Below, piece after piece: positions 3,479 to 54,367 of a DNA stretch of 64,000 bases. The stretch's first letter is position 1, and every line of letters starts with the position of its first letter. The notes under the pieces were generated by a model that was given only the letters and a program-made list of their open reading frames with translations, was not told the DNA's origin and did not search any database. Made by a program: the position numbers and the translations under genes. Source of the DNA: an uncultured Candidatus Saccharibacteria bacterium (GTDB lineage Bacteria > Patescibacteriota > Minisyncoccia > Phycocordibacterales > Phycocordibacteraceae); assembly GCA_964652615.1 (NCBI GenBank), contig CAZZAT010000001.1, positions 153,886-217,885 on the forward strand, in the 5' to 3' direction.

Positions 3479-5134
3479 CTAGGAAGCAGTCGTTGTGCTT
3501 TGGTCCTTTGCTGCTTCGAGAAACGCCGTGAAAAGCGGATGCGGAGCAAGCGGCCGCGCAATGAGCTCGGGATGAAACTGGGCTCCCACGAAAAACGGGT
3601 GTGTGTCTTTTGGCAATTCTGCTATTTCCATGAGAATGCCATCGGGAGATTTTCCCGAAAACACCATGCCGGCTGCCTCAATACGATCAATGTATTCTGG
3701 GTTCACCTCATAGCGGTGGCGATGCCGCTCTTCTATCTCCTCTTTGCCATACGCAGCCTCTGCAATAGTTCCTTTCGTGAGAACTGCAGGATAGACGCCA
3801 AGACGCATCGTGCCTCCGTAGTTTCCTTTGGCGATAAGTTCCTTTTGTTCTGGCATCACGTCAATCACGGGATGCTCAGCTTGCGGGTTAATTTCTACCG
3901 TGTGAGCACCAGAAAGACCCGCCATGTGTCGTGCGCATTCTATGACCATAAGTTGCATACCGTAGCAAAGACCAAAATAAGGAATCTTGTTTTCTCGCAC
4001 ATATCGAATTGCATGTATTTTTCCTTCAATACCCGTCTCGCCGAATCCGCCCGGCACCAAGATGCCGTCATATTCTGAAAGCCGCTCAAGCCCCTTCCCT
4101 TCTTGAAAGTCTTTTGCATTTATCCAGTCAAGCGCCACTTTTGCTCCTGTATGTGCTGCAGAGAATTTCAAAGCTTCAATGACCGAAAGATATGCGTCAG
4201 AAAGAACGAAATCACCCGTATCAAAATACTTTCCCACAATGCCGATCTTCACTGACGTCGATGCCGTCTTTGTCTTCTCTACAAACGCTTCCCATTTGGA
4301 CATTTCAGCACTCTTTCCCTCTGGAAGTCCGAGAGCTTTGGTAAGTATGTCGCCAAAGCGATCTTTCTCAAGATTAAGCGGGACGTCATAAATGCTTTCA
4401 ACATCAGGAGCAGAAATGATGCGGTCGGCACGAACAGATACAGACACCGCAAGCTTTTCCTTACGCTTCTCATCAAGTGCGACGCTTGCACGCGCAATAA
4501 GGAAATCAGGCTGTATGCCATACGCATTGAGTTGGCGTACAGCATTTTGGGTCGGCTTTGTTTTCATTTCTCCGAGCGTGCCTGGTGTTGGAAGGTAGGA
4601 GACCATACCGAAAATGACATCATCTGGCTGTTCCATTTTCAATACACGTGCTGCTTCTATGAAAAGAGCATTTTGGAAATCCCCTACCGTACCCCCTATT
4701 TCAACAACCGTTATCTTGCTCCCGTTATACGAAGCCGCCGCCTTGAGGCGGCGGAGAATCTCATCGCGCACGTGCGGGATAGCTTCGACGCACTTGCCTC
4801 CGTAGCGAAGCGCTCGTTCGTTTTCAATCACCGTCTGATAGACCATGCCGCCAGTCATATAATCTTCAGGTCCAAGATCACGATTCAAGAATCGCTCGTA
4901 ATTCCCCATGTCCTGATCAGTTTCAAGGCCGCTTCGAAGCACAAAGACTTCCCCGTGTTCAGTAGGATTCATAGTGCCTGCGTCTACGTTCAAATAGGGA
5001 TCTATCTTCACAAGATTCACCTCGTACCCGCGACTCTTTAAAATAAGGCCCATGGAAGAGACTGCGATTCCCTTGCCGACGCCGCTCATTACCCCGCCTA
5101 TGACGAATATGTATTTATGTCCATTCGTATCCAT
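3479..5134 (-). CDS. pyrG: CTP synthase
   Basis: N-terminal KYIFVIGGVMSGVGKGI synthetase domain and C-terminal glutamine amidotransferase (GLCYGMQ, HPE). 551 aa. Confidence 0.95.
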   Translation of the reverse strand: MDTNGHKYIFVIGGVMSGVGKGIAVSSMGLILKSRGYEVNLVKIDPYLNVDAGTMNPTEHGEVFVLRSGLETDQDMGNYERFLNRDLGPEDYMTGGMVYQTVIENERALRYGGKCVEAIPHVRDEILRRLKAAASYNGSKITVVEIGGTVGDFQNALFIEAARVLKMEQPDDVIFGMVSYLPTPGTLGEMKTKPTQNAVRQLNAYGIQPDFLIARASVALDEKRKEKLAVSVSVRADRIISAPDVESIYDVPLNLEKDRFGDILTKALGLPEGKSAEMSKWEAFVEKTKTASTSVKIGIVGKYFDTGDFVLSDAYLSVIEALKFSAAHTGAKVALDWINAKDFQEGKGLERLSEYDGILVPGGFGETGIEGKIHAIRYVRENKIPYFGLCYGMQLMVIECARHMAGLSGAHTVEINPQAEHPVIDVMPEQKELIAKGNYGGTMRLGVYPAVLTKGTIAEAAYGKEEIEERHRHRYEVNPEYIDRIEAAGMVFSGKSPDGILMEIAELPKDTHPFFVGAQFHPELIARPLAPHPLFTAFLEAAKDQSTTTAS

Positions 5135-6063: not shown

Positions 6064-6744
6064 TTAGAGAATATAGTGGCCGCGCGGATCATCGCGCACG
6101 ACTCTTCCTTTATCCATAGTGATAACACGCTTGCCCATAGCATCCACGACACCTTTGTTATGCGTTGTGATGATGACGGTAGTACCGAGTTCGTTGATTT
6201 TCTTTAGAATCTCAATGACGTCATAGGTGTTGACCGGATCGAGATTTCCTGTTGGTTCATCTGCAACAATCAAATCGGGCTGATTGATGATGGCACGGCC
6301 AATGGCAACGCGCTGCTGCTCACCGCCTGAAAGCTGCGAGGGGAAATGGCGGGCTTTATCGCCAAGATCCACAAGATCAAGAATGTAGGGTACGTCTGAA
6401 GCGATGTCCTCGTCGCTTTTGCCTATCGCTTCCATAGCAAACGCAATATTCTCGTATGCGGTGCGGTTTGGAATGAGACGGAAGTCCTGAAATACCGTCC
6501 CTATCTTGCGACGATAGTGGTGAAGCGCGTTTTTAGGGATGTCGTTCACATTCATTTCTTCAAAATACACAGCGCCTTCGGAAGGAGTATCTTCTGCAAG
6601 GAGCATTTTCAAAAGCGTCGTCTTCCCAGCTCCTGAATGACCAACAATGGAGACGAATTCTTTGGGACCAATAGAGAGCGAGACATCGTGGAGCGCAGGA
6701 GTCCCGTCTTTGTATTGCTTTGTTACTTTGTCGAAAAGAATCAT
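6064..6744 (-). CDS. ftsE: cell division ATP-binding protein FtsE
   Basis: Walker A GHSGAGKTT, ABC signature LSGGEQQR, Walker B LIVADEPT. 226 aa. Confidence 0.9.
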   Translation of the reverse strand: MILFDKVTKQYKDGTPALHDVSLSIGPKEFVSIVGHSGAGKTTLLKMLLAEDTPSEGAVYFEEMNVNDIPKNALHHYRRKIGTVFQDFRLIPNRTAYENIAFAMEAIGKSDEDIASDVPYILDLVDLGDKARHFPSQLSGGEQQRVAIGRAIINQPDLIVADEPTGNLDPVNTYDVIEILKKINELGTTVIITTHNKGVVDAMGKRVITMDKGRVVRDDPRGHYIL

Positions 6745-6753
6745 ATAACCTCG

Positions 6754-7629
6754 CTATTCTACCCCACCTTTGGTGGATGCATCAATAAACGAATCCAAAT
6801 CTCCGGATAACACCGCGTCTGGATTCCCTGATTCGTGGCCTGTTTCGTGATCTTTCACCATTTTATACGGGTGTAATACATAGGAGCGGCGCTGACTCCC
6901 CCACTCATTCTTCGTAGAGGATGAGAGGGAGCGCCCCTTCGCCTCTGCCTCACGCCGCTCTTCTTCTAGACGAAAGAGTTTGGCTTGTATGATATCGAGT
7001 GCTCGTTCGCGGTTAGCTTGCTGGCTACGCTCGCTTGAAACATGAGCTGAAACGCCGGTAGGGGTGTGTACGATGCGCACCGCCGTCTCTCGCTTGTTCA
7101 CGTTCTGTCCGCCCGCTCCTCCTGAACGTGCAAATTGTATTTCAAGGTCTTCCGGCTTTAGTTCTTGCTTTAGGTTGGGCGCAAGCTTTGGGAGTACTTC
7201 AATCATTGCAAAACTGGTCTGCCGCTTGTCCTTTGCATTAAAGGGTGAGATGCGCACGAGACGATGCACCCCTGCTTCGTGTTTGAGCTTTCCGTATGCT
7301 CCCTTCCCGCGAACCTCAAGCAATAGGTTACGGTATCCACCATGATCATTTTCATTGGCGTGCAGCTCACTTACGCCCCACCCTTTTAAGGATGCATACC
7401 CTTCATACATTCTACGAAGCATTGCAGCGAAATCTTCAGCGTCATCGCCTCCTGCTCCCGCAAGCACCGCAAGCGTTGCGTCTCCGTCATCTTCTGCATT
7501 TCCGCTTCCCCCTTCTTTCAGAGTCTGGTATTCGCGCACGAGGAGCTGTGCCTTATCTTTATCCTCCCAGAAGTCGGATGAGGCCATGAGGGCCTCAAGT
7601 TCAGCTATGCGCGGATGCTCTTCGCTCAT
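6754..7629 (-). CDS. prfB: peptide chain release factor 2 (SPF and GGQ motifs), single uninterrupted ORF, short N-domain
   Basis: [16 protein letters not shown] (SPF, RF2-specific) and [20 protein letters not shown] (GGQ). 291 aa with no programmed frameshift visible. Confidence 0.85.
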
Positions 7630-7643
7630 GGAGGGAGTATAGC

Positions 7644-7666
7644 AAAACCCGCATCATGCGGGTTTT
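7644..7666 (-). terminator. hairpin aaaacccgcat-c-atgcgggtttt; inferred original terminator of tRNA-Thr, now 7.3 kb from the tRNA
   Basis: Perfect 11-bp stem with T-run. Joining it to the tRNA-Thr(CGT) 3' end at the shared gattttggag core gives tRNA immediately followed by a terminator, i.e. an empty attB. Confidence 0.5.
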
Positions 7667-7860
7667 GATTTTGGAGACCCTATTAAACTCCGTTAGAACC
7701 CATTTTGCAAAGGAGCCATGATTGCTCGCGCCTCGCAGACTCGGCGCTCGCCCCGACCCTGGTGGCTCAAGCAGACTTGACCACACTTGAAGCACTACGT
7801 GTCTTCGGCGTCCGCACTAAAATCCTTTTCTTTTTTCGCGGGGGAAATCCAAAAATCCGG
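7667..7860. repeat. repeat A (194 bp), left arm of element; perfect inverted copy at 12334..12527
   Basis: Reverse complement of 12334..12527 is identical base for base. Similarity continues imperfectly to about 7876 / 12318. Confidence 0.9.
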
Positions 7861-7981
7861 GCTCGGAGCGGCAGGGCTCGGGGGTAGCCCAAAATACCAG
7901 GGTGGTCTCGTGTCTGTTTTTTATCCGCTTTGAATCGTCCCTGACTAAAGAGATTCACCCCTCGGCATCCGCCTCGGGGCT

Positions 7982-8267
7982 GTTTCCGCTATGGCTACGA
8001 AGGCCTAGATTCCTCTGTGCCGCCTTTTCCTTGCTCTCCGCCCTGCGGGGCGGGAGCTTCGGGGCGGCTCTTGTTTGGGGGAAGGACGCATCCTTCCCCC
8101 AGCTCGGGTTCATCCTCGTTCCTTCGGATTCCACCCTCGCACAACCCCCATCCTCGTTTGCATACGAGTGTTCGCTGTGTCGCTTCCGCTTTTAGATACG
8201 GTGGCTTCGGTGTTCGTCGGCCTTCGTCCTTTAGCCATGGACGCTCATAGCGGAAACAGCCCCGAGG
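7982..8267. repeat. GC-rich structured non-coding region: 21-bp perfect inverted repeat arms (7982-8002 / 8246-8267) about 243 nt apart, plus partial secondary IRs
   Basis: ctcggggctgtttccgctatg and its exact reverse complement. No credible ORF in the region. It lies just inside the left end of the element. Confidence 0.5.
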
Positions 8268-8333
8268 CAAATACATAACGCTTGCCCCACCCACCCGTGC
8301 GCGCATAACCCGCCGCGAAACGCGGCGGACTCC

Positions 8334-8702
8334 CTAAGAATGACGCAACTGCTTATACACAAACCAGCCTAAGGGTATGAAAAATAAAGAAGTCATGAGA
8401 CCTGGAGTATAAGTTTGATGAATCAGAGCGGAAAACAGGTGAGACAGTTCAATTATAGAGAAAACCAACAAAACGAACCAGAGTATCCTAGCTCTCGGGG
8501 TGTCTCGAAAAAAATACAAAACAAACAGAAATATAAAAACTACTACTTGCACCAATAGCCAAACAGCAATTTGCGGCAGAGAAACCGTTTCTGAAAACCA
8601 CTTGAGGATAGTGTCAGTACGGTGAAATCCAGATAGGTACTCTTCAACGGCATGAAGGAAGAAAAGGATAGCCGAAAAGATTATCACGCGACTTGAGGTC
8701 AT
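8334..8702 (-). CDS. HXXEE-domain membrane protein (start taken at MTSSRV, internal to the listed ORF)
   Basis: LHAVEEY motif with four predicted TM segments. 4-bp ATGA overlap with the upstream gene. Confidence 0.55.
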   Translation of the reverse strand: MTSSRVIIFSAILFFLHAVEEYLSGFHRTDTILKWFSETVSLPQIAVWLLVQVVVFIFLFVLYFFRDTPRARILWFVLLVFSIIELSHLFSALIHQTYTPGLMTSLFFIPLGWFVYKQLRHS

Positions 8703-9091
8703 TTTCTCGATTTTGCGTACATCACGAGAACTGTAGGTATGGTAAGTGCAATAGCATCTATAAGAAGATGCATCAGATCGTCGGGTCGTATGAGACCAAT
8801 AACGAGCATCCCGAGAATATGCGCGAAAGTTGCGACAATTGTGAAATTTGTAAAAAACAAATGCTGTTCCGGAACCCGAGACGCGACCCACAGATAGTAG
8901 CCCCATACGGCAAACATCAGCGTGAACATCAACTCAAAATCCCACGCATATTCCGCGCCTCGAAACTCCGGAATAAGCGCGGACGGTAGTTGGACTCCGA
9001 GCAACGGAGCGACTGATAGCACGAACACCACGATGTACCACCAGAAGAACAGCGCGAGGATTTTTAGGGCAAGTCCTAGATTCAACTTCAT
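8699..9091 (-). CDS. hypothetical polytopic membrane protein
   Basis: Four hydrophobic segments and no recognised motif. Sits in an operon with the neighbouring membrane and metal genes. Confidence 0.55.
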   Translation of the reverse strand: MKLNLGLALKILALFFWWYIVVFVLSVAPLLGVQLPSALIPEFRGAEYAWDFELMFTLMFAVWGYYLWVASRVPEQHLFFTNFTIVATFAHILGMLVIGLIRPDDLMHLLIDAIALTIPTVLVMYAKSRK

Positions 9092-9137
9092 GACAGTAAT
9101 CCTACCATCGCAAAAGGCCCCTTTCGGGGCCTTTGTG

Positions 9138-9764
9138 CTAGAGAAGGATCAGGAGTAATCCTGCTAACGCTGCCATGCCGAAGTCCTCGATGAGAGTAAT
9201 TTTCGTTAGCGGTACTTTCAGGAAAGTTCCGAGGCATGCACACATGAATTCTTCCTTCTTCGCTATCTTGATCGCAACTCCGATACCGCTGAAGAGCATC
9301 ACGGCGAGTTCCGTCCATAGGAGCCATGCGTCGTGAATCCCTGCGAGCATGAGGAGACCGAACGCAAGTTCTATGAACGGATAGATATACCCGTAGGCAG
9401 GCCAACGACTCGCGAGAAGATCGTAGGTTGAATATCCCTCCGCAAATCCCTTGAGATCTAGGAACTTGAATCCGGCGAAGACAAGAAAGAATCCCGCCAT
9501 GAAGTATCCAATGGTACTTGTGAGCGCGAGTTCTCCGCTTGCATAATCTCCCCACGAAGCCGCAAGCGTACCCGCAACGAGAAGCCCGAAGATGACCATG
9601 AGCGGGATATAACTCTTCCAAGTTATGGGCCCGAGGCCGCGGTCTTCAATATGCTGTTTCGGTTTTGCGTGTACTTCTGTTTCCAGCACGAGCGCCATGT
9701 GGCACTTCGGACATCGTCCCGGTCCTTCTTGCCGTACTTCAGGGTGCATTGGACAGGTATACAT
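9138..9764 (-). CDS. heavy-metal-binding domain (CPMHPE...CPKCHM) fused to DoxX/MauE-like membrane domain
   Basis: N-terminal YTCPMHPEVRQEGPGRCPKCHMAL resembles the TCPMHP heavy-metal-binding domain. Followed by a four-TM MauE/DoxX-like region. Confidence 0.6.
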   Translation of the reverse strand: MYTCPMHPEVRQEGPGRCPKCHMALVLETEVHAKPKQHIEDRGLGPITWKSYIPLMVIFGLLVAGTLAASWGDYASGELALTSTIGYFMAGFFLVFAGFKFLDLKGFAEGYSTYDLLASRWPAYGYIYPFIELAFGLLMLAGIHDAWLLWTELAVMLFSGIGVAIKIAKKEEFMCACLGTFLKVPLTKITLIEDFGMAALAGLLLILL

Positions 9765-9766
9765 GG

Positions 9767-10258
9767 CTATATCGCTTCATAACTAATAACGACCTTCTCC
9801 TTGTCTTTAAGCACCGTGTTCTCGTAGGTATCCACTTCAACTCCGTCTACAAGAACCTTGATCCGATGAGTCTCGTCTGTCTTGAACCCGAGGATTTCTT
9901 CGGTTGTGAACGGCTTTCCCCAGACCGCGAAGAAGTCCGCGAGCGTGAAGTCGCGTCGTTCCGGCGATTCCACATGAATCGTCCCTACCGCGTCATGGGT
10001 ATGGAGCGCGTTCATACAGTTAGGAAGCACGCCTATGTTCGGAGGTATTTCCTGTTTCTCGCCGTTCACGACTATTTCTAGCGTCGGGTGAATGTGGAAC
10101 TCGGTCGCCATATCCGTCGTGCAAGTAAGCGCCACTTCTCTAGTTGTCCGTTCCGTCTTCACGGATTCTTGTTCTCCACGCGTGAACAGAACAAAGAAGA
10201 GGATGAGTGCCGATATGCCGAAGACAATTGCAACAGCCGTCTTCATACTAATTTTCAC
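9767..10258 (-). CDS. hypothetical secreted/anchored protein with His-rich motifs (HIHPT, HTHD)
   Basis: N-terminal TM/signal segment. Conserved-looking His clusters that could bind metal. No family assigned. Confidence 0.5.
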   Translation of the reverse strand: MKISMKTAVAIVFGISALILFFVLFTRGEQESVKTERTTREVALTCTTDMATEFHIHPTLEIVVNGEKQEIPPNIGVLPNCMNALHTHDAVGTIHVESPERRDFTLADFFAVWGKPFTTEEILGFKTDETHRIKVLVDGVEVDTYENTVLKDKEKVVISYEAI

Positions 10259-10985
10259 GCAAGGCCTGTTCTACCGCCTGCTTTATCGATTCATACGGCT
10301 GCGCTCCCGAAAGCGGATACTTCTTTCCGTTTTTTGTGATGACGACGCTCCACGGAGTTCCATTTCCGCCAGTTGCGGTCGCGTTGTCGAGGTCAGCTTG
10401 GATGTGAGCATTATGACGGTCGCTCGCCGCGCATGCACTGAACGCCACAGTATCAAGTCCAACGAATGCGGCGATTTTTGGCAACTCGGCAGCGTCAAGG
10501 CCGTCGTTTGAGGGAGTAATCTCAAACAAGCGATCGGCATACTTCCAGAACGCATCGTTTCCGCCAAGTTCAGCGGCACACTCAAGCGCAACCGCTTCGC
10601 TTCGCGCTTTCTTGTGAAGCGAGTCCAGCGGGAAGTGCCGATATACCCACGCAACTTTGCCGCCTGCACCATACTCGTTCATCACTTGCCTCATGGTCTC
10701 GTGGAAGCGTTTACAGAACGGACACTCAGTATCCGAATACTCCACGATAATCACTTCCGCATCCGCACTTCCGCGAATGTGGTCGTTCACCGTTATGGGT
10801 GCGATAGAATCTAGCGCTTTCTTAAGTGCTACTTGATCCTGTCCTTGCCCCTGTGGCTGATTGTCTGCTGTGAGCGCGCCGCCGCCCGAATATATGGCTC
10901 CGGCGATAAGGAGCGCACCAAACACTACCGCGAGCGGTGTGAGATATTTTTCAAGAGTTGGGTTCATAGTCGGTTTCTTACTCAA
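10248..10985 (-). CDS. DsbA-family thiol:disulfide oxidoreductase (CPFC active site), membrane-anchored
   Basis: IIVEYSDTECPFCKRFH thioredoxin-fold CxxC motif and an N-terminal TM anchor. Confidence 0.8.
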   Translation of the reverse strand: MSKKPTMNPTLEKYLTPLAVVFGALLIAGAIYSGGGALTADNQPQGQGQDQVALKKALDSIAPITVNDHIRGSADAEVIIVEYSDTECPFCKRFHETMRQVMNEYGAGGKVAWVYRHFPLDSLHKKARSEAVALECAAELGGNDAFWKYADRLFEITPSNDGLDAAELPKIAAFVGLDTVAFSACAASDRHNAHIQADLDNATATGGNGTPWSVVITKNGKKYPLSGAQPYESIKQAVEQALREN

Positions 10986-11370
10986 TGCCGTACCACTCCT
11001 TCTGCCACTCTTTCATCTGCGCGATTTCTGCGGCCTGCGCAGCAATGATGGCATCTGCCATCATCTTGATTTCAGCGTGTTTGGCATTGACCTTTGCCGC
11101 TTCAGCCATCTGGACTGCTCCCTCATGATGCATGATCATCTCCGACAGAAACGTTTTATCAAACGCGTCTCCCGTCTTGCCGGAAAGCCCCATCATCATT
11201 GAGTCCATTTCGCCCTTCATTCCAGAGGACATGGAACCGGACATCATGTTCCCATCCGGCATCATGTGTCCGTTTTTTTGTTCGGGAGCAGTTTTACCCA
11301 CGAACGCGTAAGTGCCGAGACCTCCGATAAGTAGCGATACAAGCGCTACAAGAACAATATTTTTTTGCAT
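10978..11370 (-). CDS. DUF305-family protein, Met/His-rich (putative copper-binding), secreted
   Basis: MIMHHEGAVQMAE matches the DUF305 core. Met-rich stretch MMPDGNMMSGSMSSGMKGEMDSMMMG resembles methionine-rich copper-binding motifs. Confidence 0.7.
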   Translation of the reverse strand: MQKNIVLVALVSLLIGGLGTYAFVGKTAPEQKNGHMMPDGNMMSGSMSSGMKGEMDSMMMGLSGKTGDAFDKTFLSEMIMHHEGAVQMAEAAKVNAKHAEIKMMADAIIAAQAAEIAQMKEWQKEWYGIE

Positions 11371-11412
11371 AGGTTGTGAATCAAAGCGAATAAGCGCACC
11401 TAAATGCGGTAC

Positions 11413-11775
11413 TTAGTACGCTTTAGAATTCAGGAGTCCTTGCGCGAACAATTCTTGAAAGAGTGTCGGCCGAGTCGCATAGGCAGGAGGCGGGGGCGAC
11501 CATTCGTTCCGGCGAGGAAGAAGGTACGCAAAGCCGATAGCAGCAACGACGGTAATGTAGGGGAGCGAATCAACGAGGGTGGTCGTGAACGCGCTTTGCC
11601 AATGTTCTATATGGTCAAAAACGCTCATGGCGCAGATGGACATCTGCCCTTGCATGAACGGACAACCGATTTCGTGATTCTCGGACATAGAGAGAATCGA
11701 GAATGGTCCAAGTACGACCATTACGAAAATGGCGACGGTAAGCCCTATGGAAACAAATCCTTTCCCGAAAGCCAT
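11413..11775 (-). CDS. small hypothetical membrane protein with CPFMQGQMSIC motif
   Basis: Two to three TM segments and a Cys pair. No family assigned. Confidence 0.45.
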   Translation of the reverse strand: MAFGKGFVSIGLTVAIFVMVVLGPFSILSMSENHEIGCPFMQGQMSICAMSVFDHIEHWQSAFTTTLVDSLPYITVVAAIGFAYLLPRRNEWSPPPPAYATRPTLFQELFAQGLLNSKAY

Positions 11776-11862
11776 GTATCCATTATACCGCGCAAGTCAA
11801 GGGCGCGGAATTATACCCCTTACGCCTTCACCATCCTGCCCGACTAGGATTACAATTACAGC

Positions 11863-12309
11863 ATGAACCATAGCCCCTATCCGCGCCTCACCGCGATGAT
11901 CCTGCTCTCGTTCGCCGCGATGTATGTCCTCATGTATTCAATGGCGAATGTCCTTGCGAATGTGTATCCGAACCTAAACCAACTCTATATGGCCGGACTT
12001 ATGACTGCGCCAATGGTGCTGTTTGAGATGTTCCTTATGAGTGCAATGTACCAGAACAAGAAACTGAATTTTGCGATTATCGCGGTTGCGCTAATCGTAT
12101 TTGTCGGCTTCTTTCTCGCGATTCGCTACCAAGTAGGCATATCGGACGAGGAGTTTGTGAAGTCAATGATTCCGCACCACGCAGGCGCAGTGCTCATGTG
12201 CGAGAAAGCAGACCTTAGCGATCCGGAGATTCATGCGCTCTGCGCGGGCATAATCTCAGGGCAACAGCAGGAAATTGAACAAATGAAAAAAATTCTTGAA
12301 AGAATATAA
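11863..12309 (+). CDS. DUF305-family membrane protein
   Basis: MIPHHAGAVLMCE DUF305 core after three to four TM segments. Divergent from the minus-strand cargo operon. Confidence 0.7.
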   Translation: MNHSPYPRLTAMILLSFAAMYVLMYSMANVLANVYPNLNQLYMAGLMTAPMVLFEMFLMSAMYQNKKLNFAIIAVALIVFVGFFLAIRYQVGISDEEFVKSMIPHHAGAVLMCEKADLSDPEIHALCAGIISGQQQEIEQMKKILERI

Positions 12310-12333
12310 AACCCTCCCCCCTGCCGCTCCTTG

Positions 12334-12527
12334 CCGGATTTTTGGATTTCCCCCGCGAAAAAAGAAAAGGATTTTAGTGCGGACGCCGAAGACACGTAGT
12401 GCTTCAAGTGTGGTCAAGTCTGCTTGAGCCACCAGGGTCGGGGCGAGCGCCGAGTCTGCGAGGCGCGAGCAATCATGGCTCCTTTGCAAAATGGGTTCTA
12501 ACGGAGTTTAATAGGGTCTCCAAAATC
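12334..12527. repeat. repeat A' (inverted copy of 7667..7860)
   Basis: Exact reverse-complement identity over 194 bp. Confidence 0.9.
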
Positions 12528-12668
12528 GAAATCAGCCCAGTTTTTCCCGAATGCATTTTCGCAGAATGCAATTCCCGCCAAGGTAATACAGGGATTCCGC
12601 GCGCTTCGCGCGCGTGGGGGAGGTTCAGAAATACAGAATCCGAAAATTTTCTGGAGGGAGGATTTTTT
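12518..12668. repeat. repeat B (about 150 bp), inverted copy of 14891..15034 with two small indels; contains palindrome cgcgcgcgaagcgcgcg
   Basis: Its reverse complement matches the sequence immediately upstream of the tRNA-Thr 3' end. It abuts repeat A', so together they form an inverted attP-like composite. Confidence 0.85.
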
Positions 12669-12759
12669 ACTTCTTGTGTGCTTGCCCCACCCTTCCCGTG
12701 CGCGCACACGAGCCCTTTCGCTAAAAACTCTGTAATTAGCGAAACTCCCTATAAAAGCG

Positions 12760-12782
12760 GAAAAGCCCCTCGGGGCTTTTCC
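12760..12782. terminator. hairpin gaaaagcccctcggggcttttcc, likely bidirectional terminator downstream of DUF3800 gene
   Basis: Perfect 9-bp GC-rich stem flanked by A/T runs. Confidence 0.45.
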
Positions 12783-12881
12783 AGATTGCCTGTGCTTCGG
12801 CGACGGAATACGCCGCTTACGTGCAGTACGCTCCGCGCAGGACTTACATCACTATCCAATATAACGAAAATATGCGTGAAA

Positions 12882-13526
12882 TCAAGGTGAAGGGTTGGGT
12901 GTGGGGATAGTAGGATTTTGTCCAAATTTGCTCTGCGGAAATCGTATAGATTCGCTTATCGTCAGCATGTTGTAGAAATGGCTCTTGCCGTAGTTGTAAT
13001 GAGCCCATATTGCGTTCGCAATTACATCCGCCGCTTGTACAACCTTCGAGTGTTGAGAGTTCGTATATGAAATCTGTAAATCGTGCTGAAAACCAAACTG
13101 TGTGAATGCTTTTATTTTTATGTAATCGGCAAGTGAATTTATTGAACCTACTTTAGTAGAGTGATTATCGAGCAGGATGCAAAGATCTTCAGGTGAACTT
13201 CTGATCGTTTTCTTCACGAGGAAAGAAAATAGGTAGTTGTAGCAAAGGTTCTTATCCTCGAAGAGTTTTTTGTTATCTATGTTTTGCTTATCTGCAACAA
13301 TGTAAGAAACTGTATAGTCATTCGCACTACAAAGCCTGTTAAAAATCTCTTGTTTTTGCTTGAAAGATAGATTACTTGCTTTCACTTCAGGAAGATTATT
13401 TCTGGTGCAAAATTTCCTCATGAAATTTACGATGCGTTTACTCCTTTGGGGCGCAAGCAAAACGAGCACGAAATAGCGGTCTTTCGTCCCTAGATTCCCC
13501 GACTCATCGACGAATAACGTTTTCAT
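12882..13526 (-). CDS. DUF3800-family protein (N-terminal LFVDESG motif), AT-rich gene
   Basis: MKTLFVDESGNLG is the hallmark N-terminus of DUF3800. Local composition is clearly more AT-rich than neighbours. Divergent from the recombinase gene with an 18-bp gap. Confidence 0.6.
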   Translation of the reverse strand: MKTLFVDESGNLGTKDRYFVLVLLAPQRSKRIVNFMRKFCTRNNLPEVKASNLSFKQKQEIFNRLCSANDYTVSYIVADKQNIDNKKLFEDKNLCYNYLFSFLVKKTIRSSPEDLCILLDNHSTKVGSINSLADYIKIKAFTQFGFQHDLQISYTNSQHSKVVQAADVIANAIWAHYNYGKSHFYNMLTISESIRFPQSKFGQNPTIPTPNPSP

Positions 13527-13543
13527 GGGCGTATAATCGAATT

Positions 13544-15064
13544 ATGCGCTTCTTCCTGTACGCTCGCAAATCAACCGATACCGAGGACAAACAGGTTCTC
13601 TCTATTGAGGCGCAGTTGGCCGAATTGCGCGCTCTAGCCCGCCGTGAAGGGTTGGAAATCGTTGAAGAATTTGTAGAGAAGCGTTCCGCAAAGTCTCTTG
13701 GTCGCCCCGTGTTCGGCGAGATGATGTCGCGTATCCAAAACGGCGAAGCACAAGGAATTCTCTGCTGGAAGATAGATCGCCTCGCGCGTAATCCCGTGGA
13801 CGGTGGACAGATTCAATGGCTTCTCCAGCGAGGTGTGATTCGGCATATTCAAACACACGACCGTTCCCATTTCCCGAACGACAATGTTCTTATGATGTCT
13901 GTCGAACTTGGAATGGCGAACGAATATGTGCGCCAACTCGCCGCTAATACCTCGCGTGGACTCCGACAGAAAGCGCGAACAGGTGTATACCCTGGACTCG
14001 CCCCCATCGGCTACCTAAACGACCCGCGTACAAAAACTATTCGCACTCACAAAAAGAACTCTGTGCTCGTGCGCGAAATGTTTGAACGGTACGCGAACGG
14101 AAACACAACGCTAAATGACCTCGCTATCGTTCTTGAGAACTCCGGCGTAATTTCTAAAGGCAATAAACGGGTAAATATTTCTCGCGTTTCATTCATTTTG
14201 CAGAACCCTTTTTATTACGGCCACTTCCGCTACGCGGGCGAAGTGTACGAAGGCAAGCACGAGCCGATTATTACGAAAGCCCTATACGATAAGGCGAACA
14301 GTGTTCTACGAAGTCGTGGCCGTACTCCCGCCTCTAAAGCTATCCCTAGCCCTTATTGTGGGCTCCTACGCTGTGGCGAATGCGGTATGGGTATCACAGC
14401 CGAAGTGAAGGAAAAGCACCAAAAGAACGGCAATATCCACCATTACACTTACTACCGCTGTACTCGCAAATCTAAAACCCAAAAGTGTAAAGAAGCGCCG
14501 ATACGAAGCGAACTTTTAGATTCGCAACTAACGGCACTTCTGGGCGAGTACACGATGCCTGCCGAGTGGGTGTCGCCTCTCAACGAAATGCTCAACCACG
14601 AGGCGACTACAGCCTCACAGACGGCATCAGGAGTGATTTTTGAACTGCGAGCAAAAGCAGAAGATATTGCACGTCAACTCTCCCGCCTCACGGATTTATA
14701 TGTTGCTGAAGATTTGGAGCGTGAGGATTATCTTTCCCGTCGCCGTGCTCTTACGAGCGAGAAGCGAACGATAGAGGAGAAAATCGCCAAACTTGAACAA
14801 GCCCCATCTGCATGGGTTGAACCTGTTAGGGAGTGGATTTTGGACGCTTCGCGTCTAGGTGAAATAGCAAAGTCCGAAGACCTGCATTCCAAAAAATCCT
14901 CCCTCCAGAAAATTTTCGGATTGAACCTCTCCCTCCACGCGCGCGAAGCGCGCGGAATCCCTGTATTACCTTGGCGGGAATTGCATTCTGCGAAAATGCA
15001 TTCGGGAAAAACTGGGCTGATTTCGATTTTGGAGCCATCGGCCGGGATTGAACCGGCGACCTAA
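13544..15064 (+). CDS. large serine recombinase (resolvase catalytic domain + recombinase domain + zinc ribbon + coiled coil)
   Basis: YARKSTDTEDKQ...SIEAQ catalytic-serine region, IDRLARN, zinc ribbon CGLLRCGECG...YYRCTRKSKTQKC. The last roughly 50 codons are encoded by repeat B' and the antisense of tRNA-Thr. Confidence 0.9.
   Translation: MRFFLYARKSTDTEDKQVLSIEAQLAELRALARREGLEIVEEFVEKRSAKSLGRPVFGEMMSRIQNGEAQGILCWKIDRLARNPVDGGQIQWLLQRGVIRHIQTHDRSHFPNDNVLMMSVELGMANEYVRQLAANTSRGLRQKARTGVYPGLAPIGYLNDPRTKTIRTHKKNSVLVREMFERYANGNTTLNDLAIVLENSGVISKGNKRVNISRVSFILQNPFYYGHFRYAGEVYEGKHEPIITKALYDKANSVLRSRGRTPASKAIPSPYCGLLRCGECGMGITAEVKEKHQKNGNIHHYTYYRCTRKSKTQKCKEAPIRSELLDSQLTALLGEYTMPAEWVSPLNEMLNHEATTASQTASGVIFELRAKAEDIARQLSRLTDLYVAEDLEREDYLSRRRALTSEKRTIEEKIAKLEQAPSAWVEPVREWILDASRLGEIAKSEDLHSKKSSLQKIFGLNLSLHAREARGIPVLPWRELHSAKMHSGKTGLISILEPSAGIEPAT
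14891..15034. repeat. repeat B' (right arm of element, abuts tRNA-Thr 3' end)
   Basis: Matches the reverse complement of 12518..12668. Ends in the gatttcgattttggag core immediately before the tRNA CCA end. Confidence 0.85.
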
Positions 15065-15105
15065 GGTTTACGATACCTTCGCTCTACCAACTGAGCTACG
15101 ATGGC
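15030..15105 (-). tRNA. tRNA-Thr(CGU), CCA encoded
   Basis: Manual fold: GCCATCG acceptor, GCTC-AGTTGGTA-GAGC D-arm, anticodon stem AAGGT/ACCTT with loop ATCGTAA, T-arm GCCGG-TTCAATC-CCGGC, CCA. 76 nt. Confidence 0.85.
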
Positions 15106-15122: not shown

Positions 15123-15198
15123 TGGAGCCGATGGCCGGGATTGAACCGGCGACCCCCACCTTACCATGGTGGTGCTCTACCAACTGAGCTACATCGGC
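15123..15198 (-). tRNA. tRNA-Thr(GGU), CCA encoded
   Basis: Same scaffold as the adjacent tRNA-Thr, but anticodon stem CCACC/GGTGG with loop ATGGTAA. 76 nt. Confidence 0.85.
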
Positions 15199-23582: not shown

Positions 23583-23612
23583 CAGCTGAAAGGAATCCCA
23601 AAAGGAGAAAAG

Positions 23613-23645
23613 AAAAACCACCCCGTACGGGGTGGTTTTTCTTTT
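23613..23645 (+). terminator. rho-independent terminator (aaaaaccaccccgtacggggtggttttt)
   Basis: 10-bp stem plus T-run immediately after the 21759..23582 stop. Confidence 0.55.
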
Positions 23646-25694: not shown

Positions 25695-25945
25695 TAATCA
25701 CACAAACTTTCTTTTATGTCTACTCCATTCCAGAGAGCAAATACCAACAGCAAGAAAACAACCAAGAGGGCAATCGGAAAAGAACCGCGATTTTCGATGA
25801 TTTGGTCGGTGAGCACCCCGGCCAGAATACATAGCTAGAAAGTCCAACTTGCGTTGGACTTTCTAGCTTTTTAGAGACGAACAGGTCTGGCGGACTGGAA
25901 CCAAAATTAGGCGCTTTAAGCCAGCCAGCTGGTCTCTGAACCGTG

Positions 25946-53899: not shown

Positions 53900-54306
53900 G
53901 GGGGTGACCGGCTTTGACGGTCTGTTCTTTGAGAGACGTGCGACGCGGCGGAAGTTTGCTGTCCGCCTACAAACGCAAACAAACATACTTGCAAAGAACA
54001 CTCTTGCAAGCGTGAAGTCTCCATACTTCGGTATGTCTGATTTCGCGTTCGCTTACGCGCGCGCCTAACGGCCCTTCGCCTAAGCGACATCCAGCCAGCT
54101 GAGATCTCATAGTCTCTGGTTTCTGGGTGTAATTACCTATGAGATGGACACTCTGTTTTCCCGTGCAGAGGTCGAGATAAGGGATACGATAGGAGCGGTT
54201 TCGTGCCGGTTCCTCGCGCCCTATCGGAATGCCTAGCCGGCACTACGCGTCGTAGACTCGCTCTCAAAGACGGATTCGGACTGGAGTTCGATTCTCCACA
54301 CCTCCA
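53900..54306 (+). ncRNA. ssrA: tmRNA (ssrA)
   Basis: 5' GGGGGTGACCGGCTTTGACGG (acceptor strand plus the GGNUUYGACGG box). 3' GGAG-TTCGATT-CTCCA T-arm followed by CACCTCC pairing the 5' GGGGGTG, then A-CA. About 407 nt, directly downstream of smpB. Tag ORF not confidently identified. Confidence 0.7.
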
Positions 54307-54367
54307 CAGCTATACTCATTTTGACTATACTCAAAATGACTGGAAATACCGCCTCTCAGGCGGTTTT

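Follow-up and report, generated by a model that had tools for sequence, protein, structure and literature searches.

The insert and its junctions

The DNA analyzed here is a 64-kb stretch (the window) of contig CAZZAT010000001.1 from an uncultured Candidatus Saccharibacteria bacterium, in which all coordinates without a locus label are given; its subject is an insert of 7358 bp at 7677–15034 that carries the gene of a large serine recombinase (LSR). On the minus strand, the locus reads tRNA-Thr(GGT), tRNA-Thr(CGT), the insert, a hairpin, and prfB-ftsE-ftsX. Comparisons with related loci, designated by the L numbers of the family search described below, supported the interpretation of the insert as an integrative element with its own LSR, located at the 3′ end of tRNA-Thr(CGT).

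The target tRNA-Thr(CGT) was detected by both ARAGORN and Rfam at 15030–15105 on the minus strand, where the first-pass annotation of this DNA had placed it, and is intact. At the opposite end, the hairpin aaaacccgcat-c-atgcgggtttt, which had likewise been pointed out, was found at 7644–7666 on the minus strand as a single copy in the window; it has an 11-bp stem, a 1-nt loop, and a T-run behind it, and its end is 15 nt away from the start codon (7629) of the downstream gene prfB (6754–7629, minus strand). When 7677–15034 was deleted in silico, the CCA end of the tRNA came to lie 5 nt from this hairpin, and the predicted joining of the tRNA 3′ end to the terminator was thus reproduced. The native terminator of the tRNA operon and the region upstream of prfB coincide in this hairpin, which constitutes the host "B" flank; in L084, a homologous hairpin plus ttttgctatactc stands ahead of prfB. 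The neighboring tRNA-Thr(GGT) (15123–15198, minus strand) is unoccupied, has no intron, and bears the same B′-type motif as the target, and its homologue in L004 is occupied.

Both ends of the insert carry the 10-mer GATTTTGGAG, which occurs three times in the window (7667–7676 and 15025–15034 on the plus strand, 12518–12527 on the minus strand) against an expectation of 0.21; three copies were reached in none of 100 shuffles. The longer 16-mer gatttYgattttggag, earlier assigned to both ends, was confirmed at the right end (15019–15034), whereas the left copy, ggttttgattttggag, agreed with it at only 14 of 16 positions. A repeat search aligned 7658–7676 with 15016–15034 as a direct repeat at 16 of 19 positions, and repeat counts in the window ruled out a dispersed repeat family as the source of the core repeat and the hairpin. 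The 10-bp direct repeat, taken alone, is weak evidence of the junctions; these are certain because an internal chimeric site, described below, switches identity between two arms exactly at the core.

In the left attachment site (attL), the core is the 10-bp identity block at 7667–7676 (plus strand), with the GAG that is obligatory throughout the family at 7674–7676. It is followed by the P′ arm (7677–7876, plus strand), the first ~45 nt of which are conserved in the family (21-element alignment); in this arm GTTAGAACC begins 16 nt past GAG and its GAAC 19 nt past GAG. The distal part of the arm (7700–7876; columns 46–330 of alignment A1) contains two to three successive hairpins with clade-specific sequence and conserved position, which could act as insulating terminators or protein-binding sites. 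A promoter and terminator scan gave nothing above shuffles, and a sigma-70-like TTGCAA-17-TTTAAT in P′, noticed by eye and directed toward the core, has a poor −10 box and is not claimed. In the right attachment site (attR), the P arm (14891–15024, plus strand) forms the left half and doubles as the 3′ coding end of the LSR gene, and the core (15025–15034, plus strand) places GAG (15032–15034) on C72, U73, and C74 of the tRNA, whose T-arm, with GAAC from 15 nt after GAG, is the putative B′ half-site.

The LSR gene (13544–15064, plus strand) is situated, in accordance with the first-pass annotation, at the tRNA-proximal end; it reads into the tRNA, and its last 10 codons lie past the core, inside the tRNA gene. 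The 506-aa product bears YARKST at residues 6–11 and the three domains of LSRs, namely a catalytic Resolvase domain (PF00239, E = 3e-23, residues 4–148), a Recombinase domain (PF07508, E = 4e-15), and a Zn_ribbon_recom domain (PF13408, E = 8e-9). It matched the phrog_95 integrase (2e-83) and aligned distantly with SprA and A118 Int, with E values of about 1e-12 to solved LSRs. Its closest NCBIfam likeness was CcrB; since the score was 116 bits against a cut-off of 900, the enzyme is not a Ccr.

The insert is not a simple one. Self-comparison revealed two pairs of inverted repeats, 7663–7876 with 12319–12531 (214 nt, 98–99% identical) and 12518–12668 with 14891–15034 (103 nt at 99% and 32 nt at 100% with an indel between them; 152 nt at 92.8% when aligned whole, including the indel), and the two pairs overlap exactly at the core. 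The segment 12319–12668, unseen in the first-pass annotation, is the reverse complement of the right end of the insert, the core, and the left end of the insert; judged by its sequence, it is an inverted copy, inside the element, of the attP (P-core-P′) predicted for a circular junction. Its left half is the inverted P′ arm copy (12319–12517, minus strand), followed by the core ctccaaaatc (12518–12527, minus strand), which is the third GATTTTGGAG copy, and by the inverted P arm copy (12528–12668, minus strand), which is noncoding and matches the last ~45 codons of the LSR gene. The element comprises a cargo arc (7677–12517) and a recombinase arc (12528–15024), each bounded by inverted repeats.

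The cargo arc encodes, all on the minus strand, an HXXEE protein recognized by domain match (8334–8906), a weak match to DUF6632 (8699–9091), an HMBD-MauE protein (9138–9764), a 163-aa protein with no assigned family (9767–10258), a DsbA-like thioredoxin (10248–10985), and a DUF305 protein (10978–11370), followed by overlapping open reading frames with no assigned family (11404–11847) and a second DUF305 protein with transmembrane segments (11863–12309, plus strand). This cargo is a set of metal-resistance and metal-disulfide genes, none of which matched a PHROG. In the recombinase arc, the LSR is accompanied by a divergent accessory gene for a DUF3800 protein (12882–13526, minus strand), with a terminator-like hairpin downstream of it (12758–12783, minus strand); the protein matched only PHROGs of unknown function and, weakly, PDC-M04A. 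Because the start codons of the two divergent genes are separated by a gap of merely 17 nt (13527–13543), their promoters must lie in each other's coding regions. No replication gene was seen in the element.

Elsewhere in the window, perfect or near-perfect palindromes of 36–40 nt were found at 23608–23645 (100% self-complementary), 1343–1381, and 25833–25868, and an unoccupied tmRNA gene with the tag peptide AKNTLASVKSPYFGMSDFAFAYARA lies at 53900–54307. The element of L013 adjoins a tmRNA/tRNA-like 3′ end that terminates in GGCTCCACCA.

Related loci and movement of the element

A search of one genome per species yielded 79 loci encoding relatives of the LSR (32–93% identity), nearly all in metagenome-assembled genomes (MAGs) of Patescibacteria and a few in Bacteroidota. 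With few exceptions, the LSR gene of these loci runs up to the 3′ end of a tRNA gene. ARAGORN assigned 28 targets directly to tRNA-Thr, comprising GGT (12), CGT (11), and TGT (5), and distant family members were found at Pro, Val, Gly, and Phe tRNAs. Four intron-bearing target tRNAs were mis-called as Arg; a check of the L004 target identified it as tRNA-Thr(GGT), the anticodon of which is followed by a ~178-nt intron. Such a tRNA-Thr(GGT), with an intron of ~180 nt just past the anticodon, occurs in L087 (5125–5385) and L004 (11487–11740, minus strand), and likely in L005, L010, L013, and L026 too; the intron ends are conserved ("...gatacagtctagcc...gtgtaagcg"), and ARAGORN with introns allowed mis-calls the gene as Arg(GCG). 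The target in L028 (~9594–9670) was called tRNA-Stop(tta), and its anticodon loop can also be read by eye as Lys(TTT).

That the 7.3 kb are an insertion, as first proposed, was supported by relatives in which tRNA-Thr(CGT) next to prfB is empty. In L004, whose PrfB is 80% identical and whose ftsE-prfB synteny is the same, tRNA-Thr(CGT) (2625–2700) and the prfB ATG are separated by 24 nt free of any insertion. The same locus contains an element with cargo in the same order and orientation as in the window, located in the neighboring tRNA-Thr(GGT), which is free in the window. This reciprocal pair of occupied and empty sites provides the best stand-in for an empty site of the same strain. Furthermore, the element was more conserved than its surroundings, the identity between the window and L004 being, at the nucleotide level, 86.8% for the LSR and 96–97% for P′, and 83–87% for the cargo, compared with 74.8% for the ftsE-prfB flank. 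The tRNA-Thr(CGT) beside prfB was also unoccupied in L005, L019, L021, and L080, and no LSR was present at this tRNA in L084 and L087 (PrfB 82–83% identical). In L012 and L024, different family members occupy the prfB/tRNA-Thr(CGT) junction, which is therefore a recurrent hot spot. The insert thus displays the features of a tRNA island, namely insertion at the 3′ end, an intact tRNA, a flanking direct repeat, an adjacent integrase, and an empty site in relatives.

The joined flanks, proposed earlier as a probe for the empty site, gave no match for this strain in JGI metagenomes as an exact 28-mer, whereas relatives do show the empty site. A 36-mer from P′, used for the free circular form, matched L091 only, which is apparently the same element as L005, as judged by sample name and matching site spacing rather than by alignment. 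The exact LSR protein was not on record in the database search, and Logan unitigs of the same strain (SRR15237817) break exactly at the repeat boundaries and are uninformative on orientation. Genes identical to those of the window are present in SRR15237804 as well.

The layout with an internal site was widespread in the family. In 46 of the 79 loci, an inverted repeat of 110–190 nt (83–100% identical) relates the 3′ end of the LSR gene to a site upstream of it, enclosing a recombinase unit of 1.8–10.6 kb, and P′-type sequence lies to the left of the upstream site in all but a few (L013, L050, L069, L019, L049, and L066). On contigs of sufficient length, a cargo arc of 1.8–8.4 kb is closed by a second inverted P′ that adjoins host DNA; this pair was found in L004, L005, L012, L014, L021, L024, L038, and L042, and in part in L033, L034, and L041. 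The contigs of many relatives break 50–140 nt into P′, as expected of an unresolved repeat. A one-piece form of 3.4 kb is represented by the second element of L058 (L058-E2; attL at 4942, LSR at 6846–8363), which consists of P′, a structured RNA described below, and the LSR without an internal inverted attP; L058 (2160–8406) harbors two family members at adjacent tRNA-Thr genes. At L074 (9183–9404), a head-to-head P/inverted-P pair (arms ~73%) takes the place of P′ at the left end of the recombinase arc. Relics were observed in two loci lacking an LSR, namely a lone inverted P′-core remnant between two tRNA-Thr genes in L084 (4545–4696) and, in L087 (5386–5420), a tRNA-Thr(GGT) trailer aaaatcgaaatcag that equals the start of the P arm.

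Cargo varies between elements of the family. Additional genes occur in the recombinase arc, nearly always divergent from the LSR (L004 8060–9953, L015 2288–4130, L019/L020, L028 378–7814, and L030 306–8926), and were labeled by eye as AbiEii/AbiEi, ImmA/IrrE with PIN, AAA/OLD-like ATPase, and type I and III restriction-modification genes. If these labels hold, the LSR family would be a carrier of defense systems. The three-site layout is a trait of this large cargo- and defense-carrying family, which resides mostly in Patescibacteria.

Several relatives bear signs that the internal site has been used. In L069 (Bacteroidota), the recombinase arc is collinear with those of L072, L073, and L077 (84–89%) and the outer flanks are swapped; the LSR gene reads into P′ and has a tRNA-Pro next to its upstream arm. 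The arrangement is a precise inversion between the cores, and the contig path is unambiguous because the arms are only 91% identical. A segment with inverted crossover sites was thus found in both orientations across relatives, not within the strain of the window. In L013 and L050, the recombinase arc has tRNA-type ends at both arms; in L050, one of these ends belongs to a genuine tRNA-Thr(TGT) and the other has GAACC at attB-type spacing. Such a layout would be expected if the internal attP had recombined with another attB of the same chromosome. The cargo arc of L033 seems inverted, because the backbone RNA adjoins the internal arm and not the attL arm; the arms are identical, and this may be the choice of the assembler. 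In L022, the internal P arm is from another lineage than the LSR-side arm. L080 contains a decayed array (6514–6845, 8328–8690, and 10027–10397) with several P and P′ fragments and only the last ~100 codons of an LSR; its direct P-core-P′, which is preceded by an LSR 3′ fragment, is a relic of a tandem array or circle junction.

Core, half-sites, and a structured RNA

To delimit the core, attL, the reverse-complemented internal site, and attR were aligned from eight complete elements. The block common to the three sites was 10 nt in the window, TTGGAG in L004, GGAG in L038, TGAG in L014, and GAG in L012 and L042, so that GAG represented the only bases shared by all three sites across the family. 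The 16-nt core of the first-pass annotation accordingly shrank to an obligatory GAG, which corresponds to tRNA positions 72–74, i.e., the last acceptor base, the discriminator, and the first C of CCA. Since only GAG is common to the three sites, the crossover dinucleotide should be GA or AG. Dyad symmetry of attP in 32 elements was highest with AG as the center (236 matches vs. 145–185), and AAACTC then falls at positions 10–15 on both sides. The LSR would thus cut with a 2-nt stagger within GAG, most likely at AG (tRNA C72/N73). A palindromic AT crossover in gATtttggag, whose loss of polarity would have explained the inverted site, was rejected because L012 and L042 share GAG only.

A T-N-G-A-A-C motif was found 19 nt after GAG in P′ and 15 nt after GAG in the tRNA in 32 of 32 elements, and its tRNA-side copy is the antisense of the tRNA T-arm. 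The trailer side of the tRNA (B half) showed no conservation across the family. From these patterns we infer that the tRNA acceptor and T-arm serve as the attB-type half-site of the LSR and that its mimic in P′ serves as the attP-type half-site. The LSR seems to recognize attB through its tRNA half; the use of three Thr isoacceptors with unrelated downstream DNA by one clade would follow from such recognition. The claim that the 3′ flank of the tRNA rather than the T-loop is the target therefore holds for the crossover only, and the T-arm almost certainly belongs to the recognized half-site, as indicated by the motif offsets. In the model for the LI/A118 integrase, the motif of the zinc-ribbon domain (ZD) lies nearer the center in attB than in attP, with a shift of 5 bp (PMC3783163). 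The 19- and 15-nt offsets match this ZD-motif shift between the attB and attP of serine integrases, although the shift here is 4 nt compared with 5 bp, and a ZD-type distal motif was shown by right half-sites only.

Just inside the attL-side P′ arm, a structured element of ~350 nt (7940–8300, plus strand) was recognized as a candidate noncoding RNA. It is conserved among elements whose LSRs are only 60–75% identical and folds into multiple helices closed by a stem of 19–23 bp (7971–7993 with 8246–8268). In an alignment of 14 sequences, 98.1% of the cells were paired, and 10 pairs and 37 cells were changed on both sides; these double-change cells compare with 10.8 in shuffles (as many in 0 of 500) and 0–2 in slid controls. 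G-U pairs favored the strand reading inward from attL. The RNA was located in L004 (3588–3952), L006 (3845–4215), L019 (2240–2577), L012 (12700–13107), L021 (2530–2917), L042 (2310–2693), L038 (1040–1427), L058 (5260–5637), L014 (1700–2114), L036 (135–476), L049 (1664–1980), L033 (3449–3802, minus strand), and L034 (330–731). As the simple element L058-E2 has it too, the RNA belongs to the backbone and not to the cargo. Rfam gave no match for 7940–8300 even at E ≤ 10, and the motif was absent from IMG/VR. RNA-guided targeting was considered and rejected, as the longest matches of the RNA to att sites were no longer than in shuffles.

Interpretation and comparison with known systems

Taken together, 7677–15034 is very probably a 7.36-kb integrative element placed at the 3′ end of tRNA-Thr(CGT) by its own LSR, and integration by attP × attB at a tRNA 3′ end is, if anything, a slightly firmer part of this interpretation. 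If attL recombined with attR, the excised product would be a circle divided by two inverted attP sites into two arcs, one carrying the structured RNA and the metal/disulfide cargo and the other DUF3800 and the LSR. Either arc could invert, and the internal attP would stay reactive after integration. Recombination of this spare attP with attR, which keeps the attB-type tRNA half and whose left half need not be specific, would flip the recombinase arc. In the common state, the LSR would converge on a strongly transcribed tRNA, leaving the element quiet and stable; in the rare flipped state, it would lie downstream of the tRNA in the same direction. The role of the internal attP is deduced from the layout, and we propose only tentatively, at somewhat less than even confidence, that it functions in this flipping via attR and in the quiet convergent state. 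Alternatively, the internal site may reflect RecA-mediated flipping and gene conversion of long repeats, or conserved arms for homologous exchange of cassettes.

A broader model, which we regard as speculative and a little less probable still, is that this LSR family of Patescibacteria and Bacteroidota uses the T-arm and acceptor as an attB half-site and has evolved an inverted second attP, giving a two-arc circle like that of the 2-micron plasmid. The live attP might flip the LSR gene relative to the tRNA promoter as an on/off or locking switch independent of a recombination directionality factor (RDF), or recombine with other tRNA genes, and the ~350-nt RNA might be a third component of the integration module.

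Several observations weigh against these interpretations. For this strain, neither an empty site nor a circular junction nor an alternative orientation turned up, and no RDF candidate was recognized. The canonical rule for LSRs (attP × attB only) bars attP × attR, so that LSR-driven inversion is an assumption, and RecA acting on repeats of 150–340 nt could also invert the arcs. A nonconserved B half-site is unusual for an LSR that binds as a dimer. Orientation is strongly biased, with ~44 loci in the standard arrangement (LSR converging on the tRNA) against 1–3 flipped, and inversion is thus rare or counter-selected. The internal site is not obligatory, as at least eight relatives with enough flank are devoid of it (L011, L029, L056, L059, L062, L064, L071, and the second element of L058). 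In addition, all relatives are metagenome assemblies, in which the identical P′ arms and some orientations, e.g., that of L033, may be assembler choices. No route was found by which the three-site layout could be derived from simple elements through legitimate serine-recombinase reactions such as tandem insertion or inversion with other att sites.

The alternative that survives best assumes two adjacent elements sharing a core, namely an insertion sequence-like recombinase unit (12518–15034, with terminal inverted repeats of ~150 nt) and a nonautonomous cargo unit (7667–12527, ~200 nt). It would account for the inverted repeats that bound each arc separately, for the recombinase unit standing alone between two tRNA-type ends without P′ in L013 and L050, and for the foreign internal P arm of L022, which suggests modular exchange. 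We nevertheless consider it improbable, because conservative serine recombination between inverted sites only inverts and neither unit could excise alone. Moreover, comparison of the window with L004 indicated that both arcs moved together to different tRNAs, bounded at attL and attR; the middle site is exactly P-core-P′, as for a circle junction; and the structured RNA of the cargo end is also present in the one-piece L058-E2.

Quite unlikely, in our estimation, is a resident invertible segment for phase variation, inherited vertically at prfB/tRNA-Thr, with the recombinase acting as an invertase and not as an integrase. The inverted repeats around both arcs, the orientation polymorphism of L069 and L033, the presence of LSR elements between prfB and tRNA-Thr in many relatives, and the failure to find an empty site of the same species would all fit such a segment. 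The sites of L004, L005, L019, L021, L080, L084, and L087 are nevertheless unoccupied, the same element resides in a different tRNA in L004, and the family is distributed over tRNAs for Thr, Pro, Val, Gly, Phe, and others, where its left flanks are unrelated. The higher conservation of the element relative to its flanks and the differing cargo also speak against vertical residence.

Even less credible is an assembly artifact, in which graph paths mixing integrated and excised forms produced the inverted internal junction. The window, like every relative, is a MAG contig, 120 nt of the P′ arms agree at 100% in each complete case, like a collapsed repeat node, and many contigs end inside P′; however, the same layout recurs in 46 independent assemblies made with different assemblers, including contigs of 0.5–1.1 Mb, the P arms are usually nonidentical (83–99%), which implies that each copy was resolved individually, and a mixture of integrated and circular forms would yield a direct, not an inverted, junction. 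Finally, a prophage or phage satellite with a serine integrase, brought to mind by the phrog_95 match of the LSR and by the tRNA site typical of prophages, is hardly tenable for an element of only 7.4 kb, in which no other protein matches a phage family of known function (DUF3800 matching unknown-function PHROGs only), whose closest LSR relative in IMG/VR is no nearer than 26% identity, and whose backbone RNA motif is absent from that database.

The integrative-element interpretation is of practical interest, as serine integrases are major tools of genome engineering and dozens of naturally occurring attP/attB pairs at tRNA 3′ ends are available from the LSR family. Their recognition logic can be tested and combines a GAG core with a T-arm motif shifted by 4 nt and an apparently unconstrained attB left half. 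The family also seems to be a main vehicle of defense and metal-resistance cargo in Patescibacteria, a group with poorly known mobile elements, and current models of LSR directionality account for neither its internal inverted attP nor its backbone RNA. Three features would merit following, namely putative T-arm recognition by the LSR, the inverted attP conserved inside the element, and the backbone RNA. No paper on this LSR-tRNA family in the candidate phyla radiation, or on an internal inverted attP, was found in the literature.

Among known systems, serine-integrase elements and prophages (A118/LI Int, SPbeta SprA, phiC31, and Bxb1) resemble the present element in the three recombinase domains, the short shared core, the dyad-symmetric inner motifs of attP (AAACTC at positions 10–15), and the distal motif lying nearer the center in attB. 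The element differs from them in the shift of 4 instead of 5, the restriction of the distal motif to right half-sites, the unconserved left half of attB, the tRNA 3′-end target, the second inverted attP inside, and the lack of an evident RDF.

Tn4451/Tn4453 (TnpX) and Tn5397 (TndX) are likewise small cargo elements with one LSR, a circular form, and a 2-bp crossover. Elements of this type have GA at the core, to which the GA/AG-containing core found here is similar. They have, in contrast, low target specificity, usually lie within genes, and possess neither long inverted repeats nor an internal attP; all members of the present family examined were at tRNA-type 3′ ends and not at GA dinucleotides with low specificity. 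For TnpX and TndX, both directions run without an RDF (PMC5704250).

The staphylococcal cassette chromosome (SCC) with its Ccr recombinases is also an LSR-moved cargo island at the 3′ end of a conserved housekeeping gene, and CcrB was the best NCBIfam likeness of the LSR. The target of SCC is, however, rlmH and not a tRNA, and the LSR described here is not a Ccr. In composite SCCs, internal att sites are direct and not inverted.

Small serine invertases (Hin, Gin, Cin, and Pin/PinQ) similarly combine a recombinase gene with a segment between inverted sites that occurs in both orientations in nature (PinQ: PMC12529663). They are small enzymes with a C-terminal helix-turn-helix, short sites, and a Fis enhancer, and the segment they invert is not an integration module, whereas the present LSR has 506 aa and its inverted sites are attP and attR. 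As a parallel in working, the yeast 2-micron plasmid (FLP/FRT) has two long inverted repeats with recombination sites and two flipping arcs, like the predicted circle. FLP, unlike the LSR, is a tyrosine recombinase acting on a eukaryotic replicon with an origin, and the circle proposed here is a prediction only.

With regard to the target, the element resembles the tRNA islands of tyrosine integrases (P4-like islands, NBU1, and tycheposons), which share the tRNA 3′ end, the restored tRNA, the tRNA-proximal integrase, and adaptive or defense cargo (tycheposons: 10.1101/2020.12.28.424599). Tyrosine-recombinase elements have been described as using tRNA 3′ ends, and serine-recombinase elements as inserting within genes (PMC5704250). 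A genome-wide survey predicted use of t(m)RNA genes in 14 of 297 serine-integrase (S-Int) elements, none of them validated, and called it previously unreported and in need of proof (PMC7192596). The element described here stands apart from the tyrosine-integrase islands in that an LSR, with its other chemistry, is the sole recombinase and in that the identity block spans 3–10 nt instead of tens of nucleotides.

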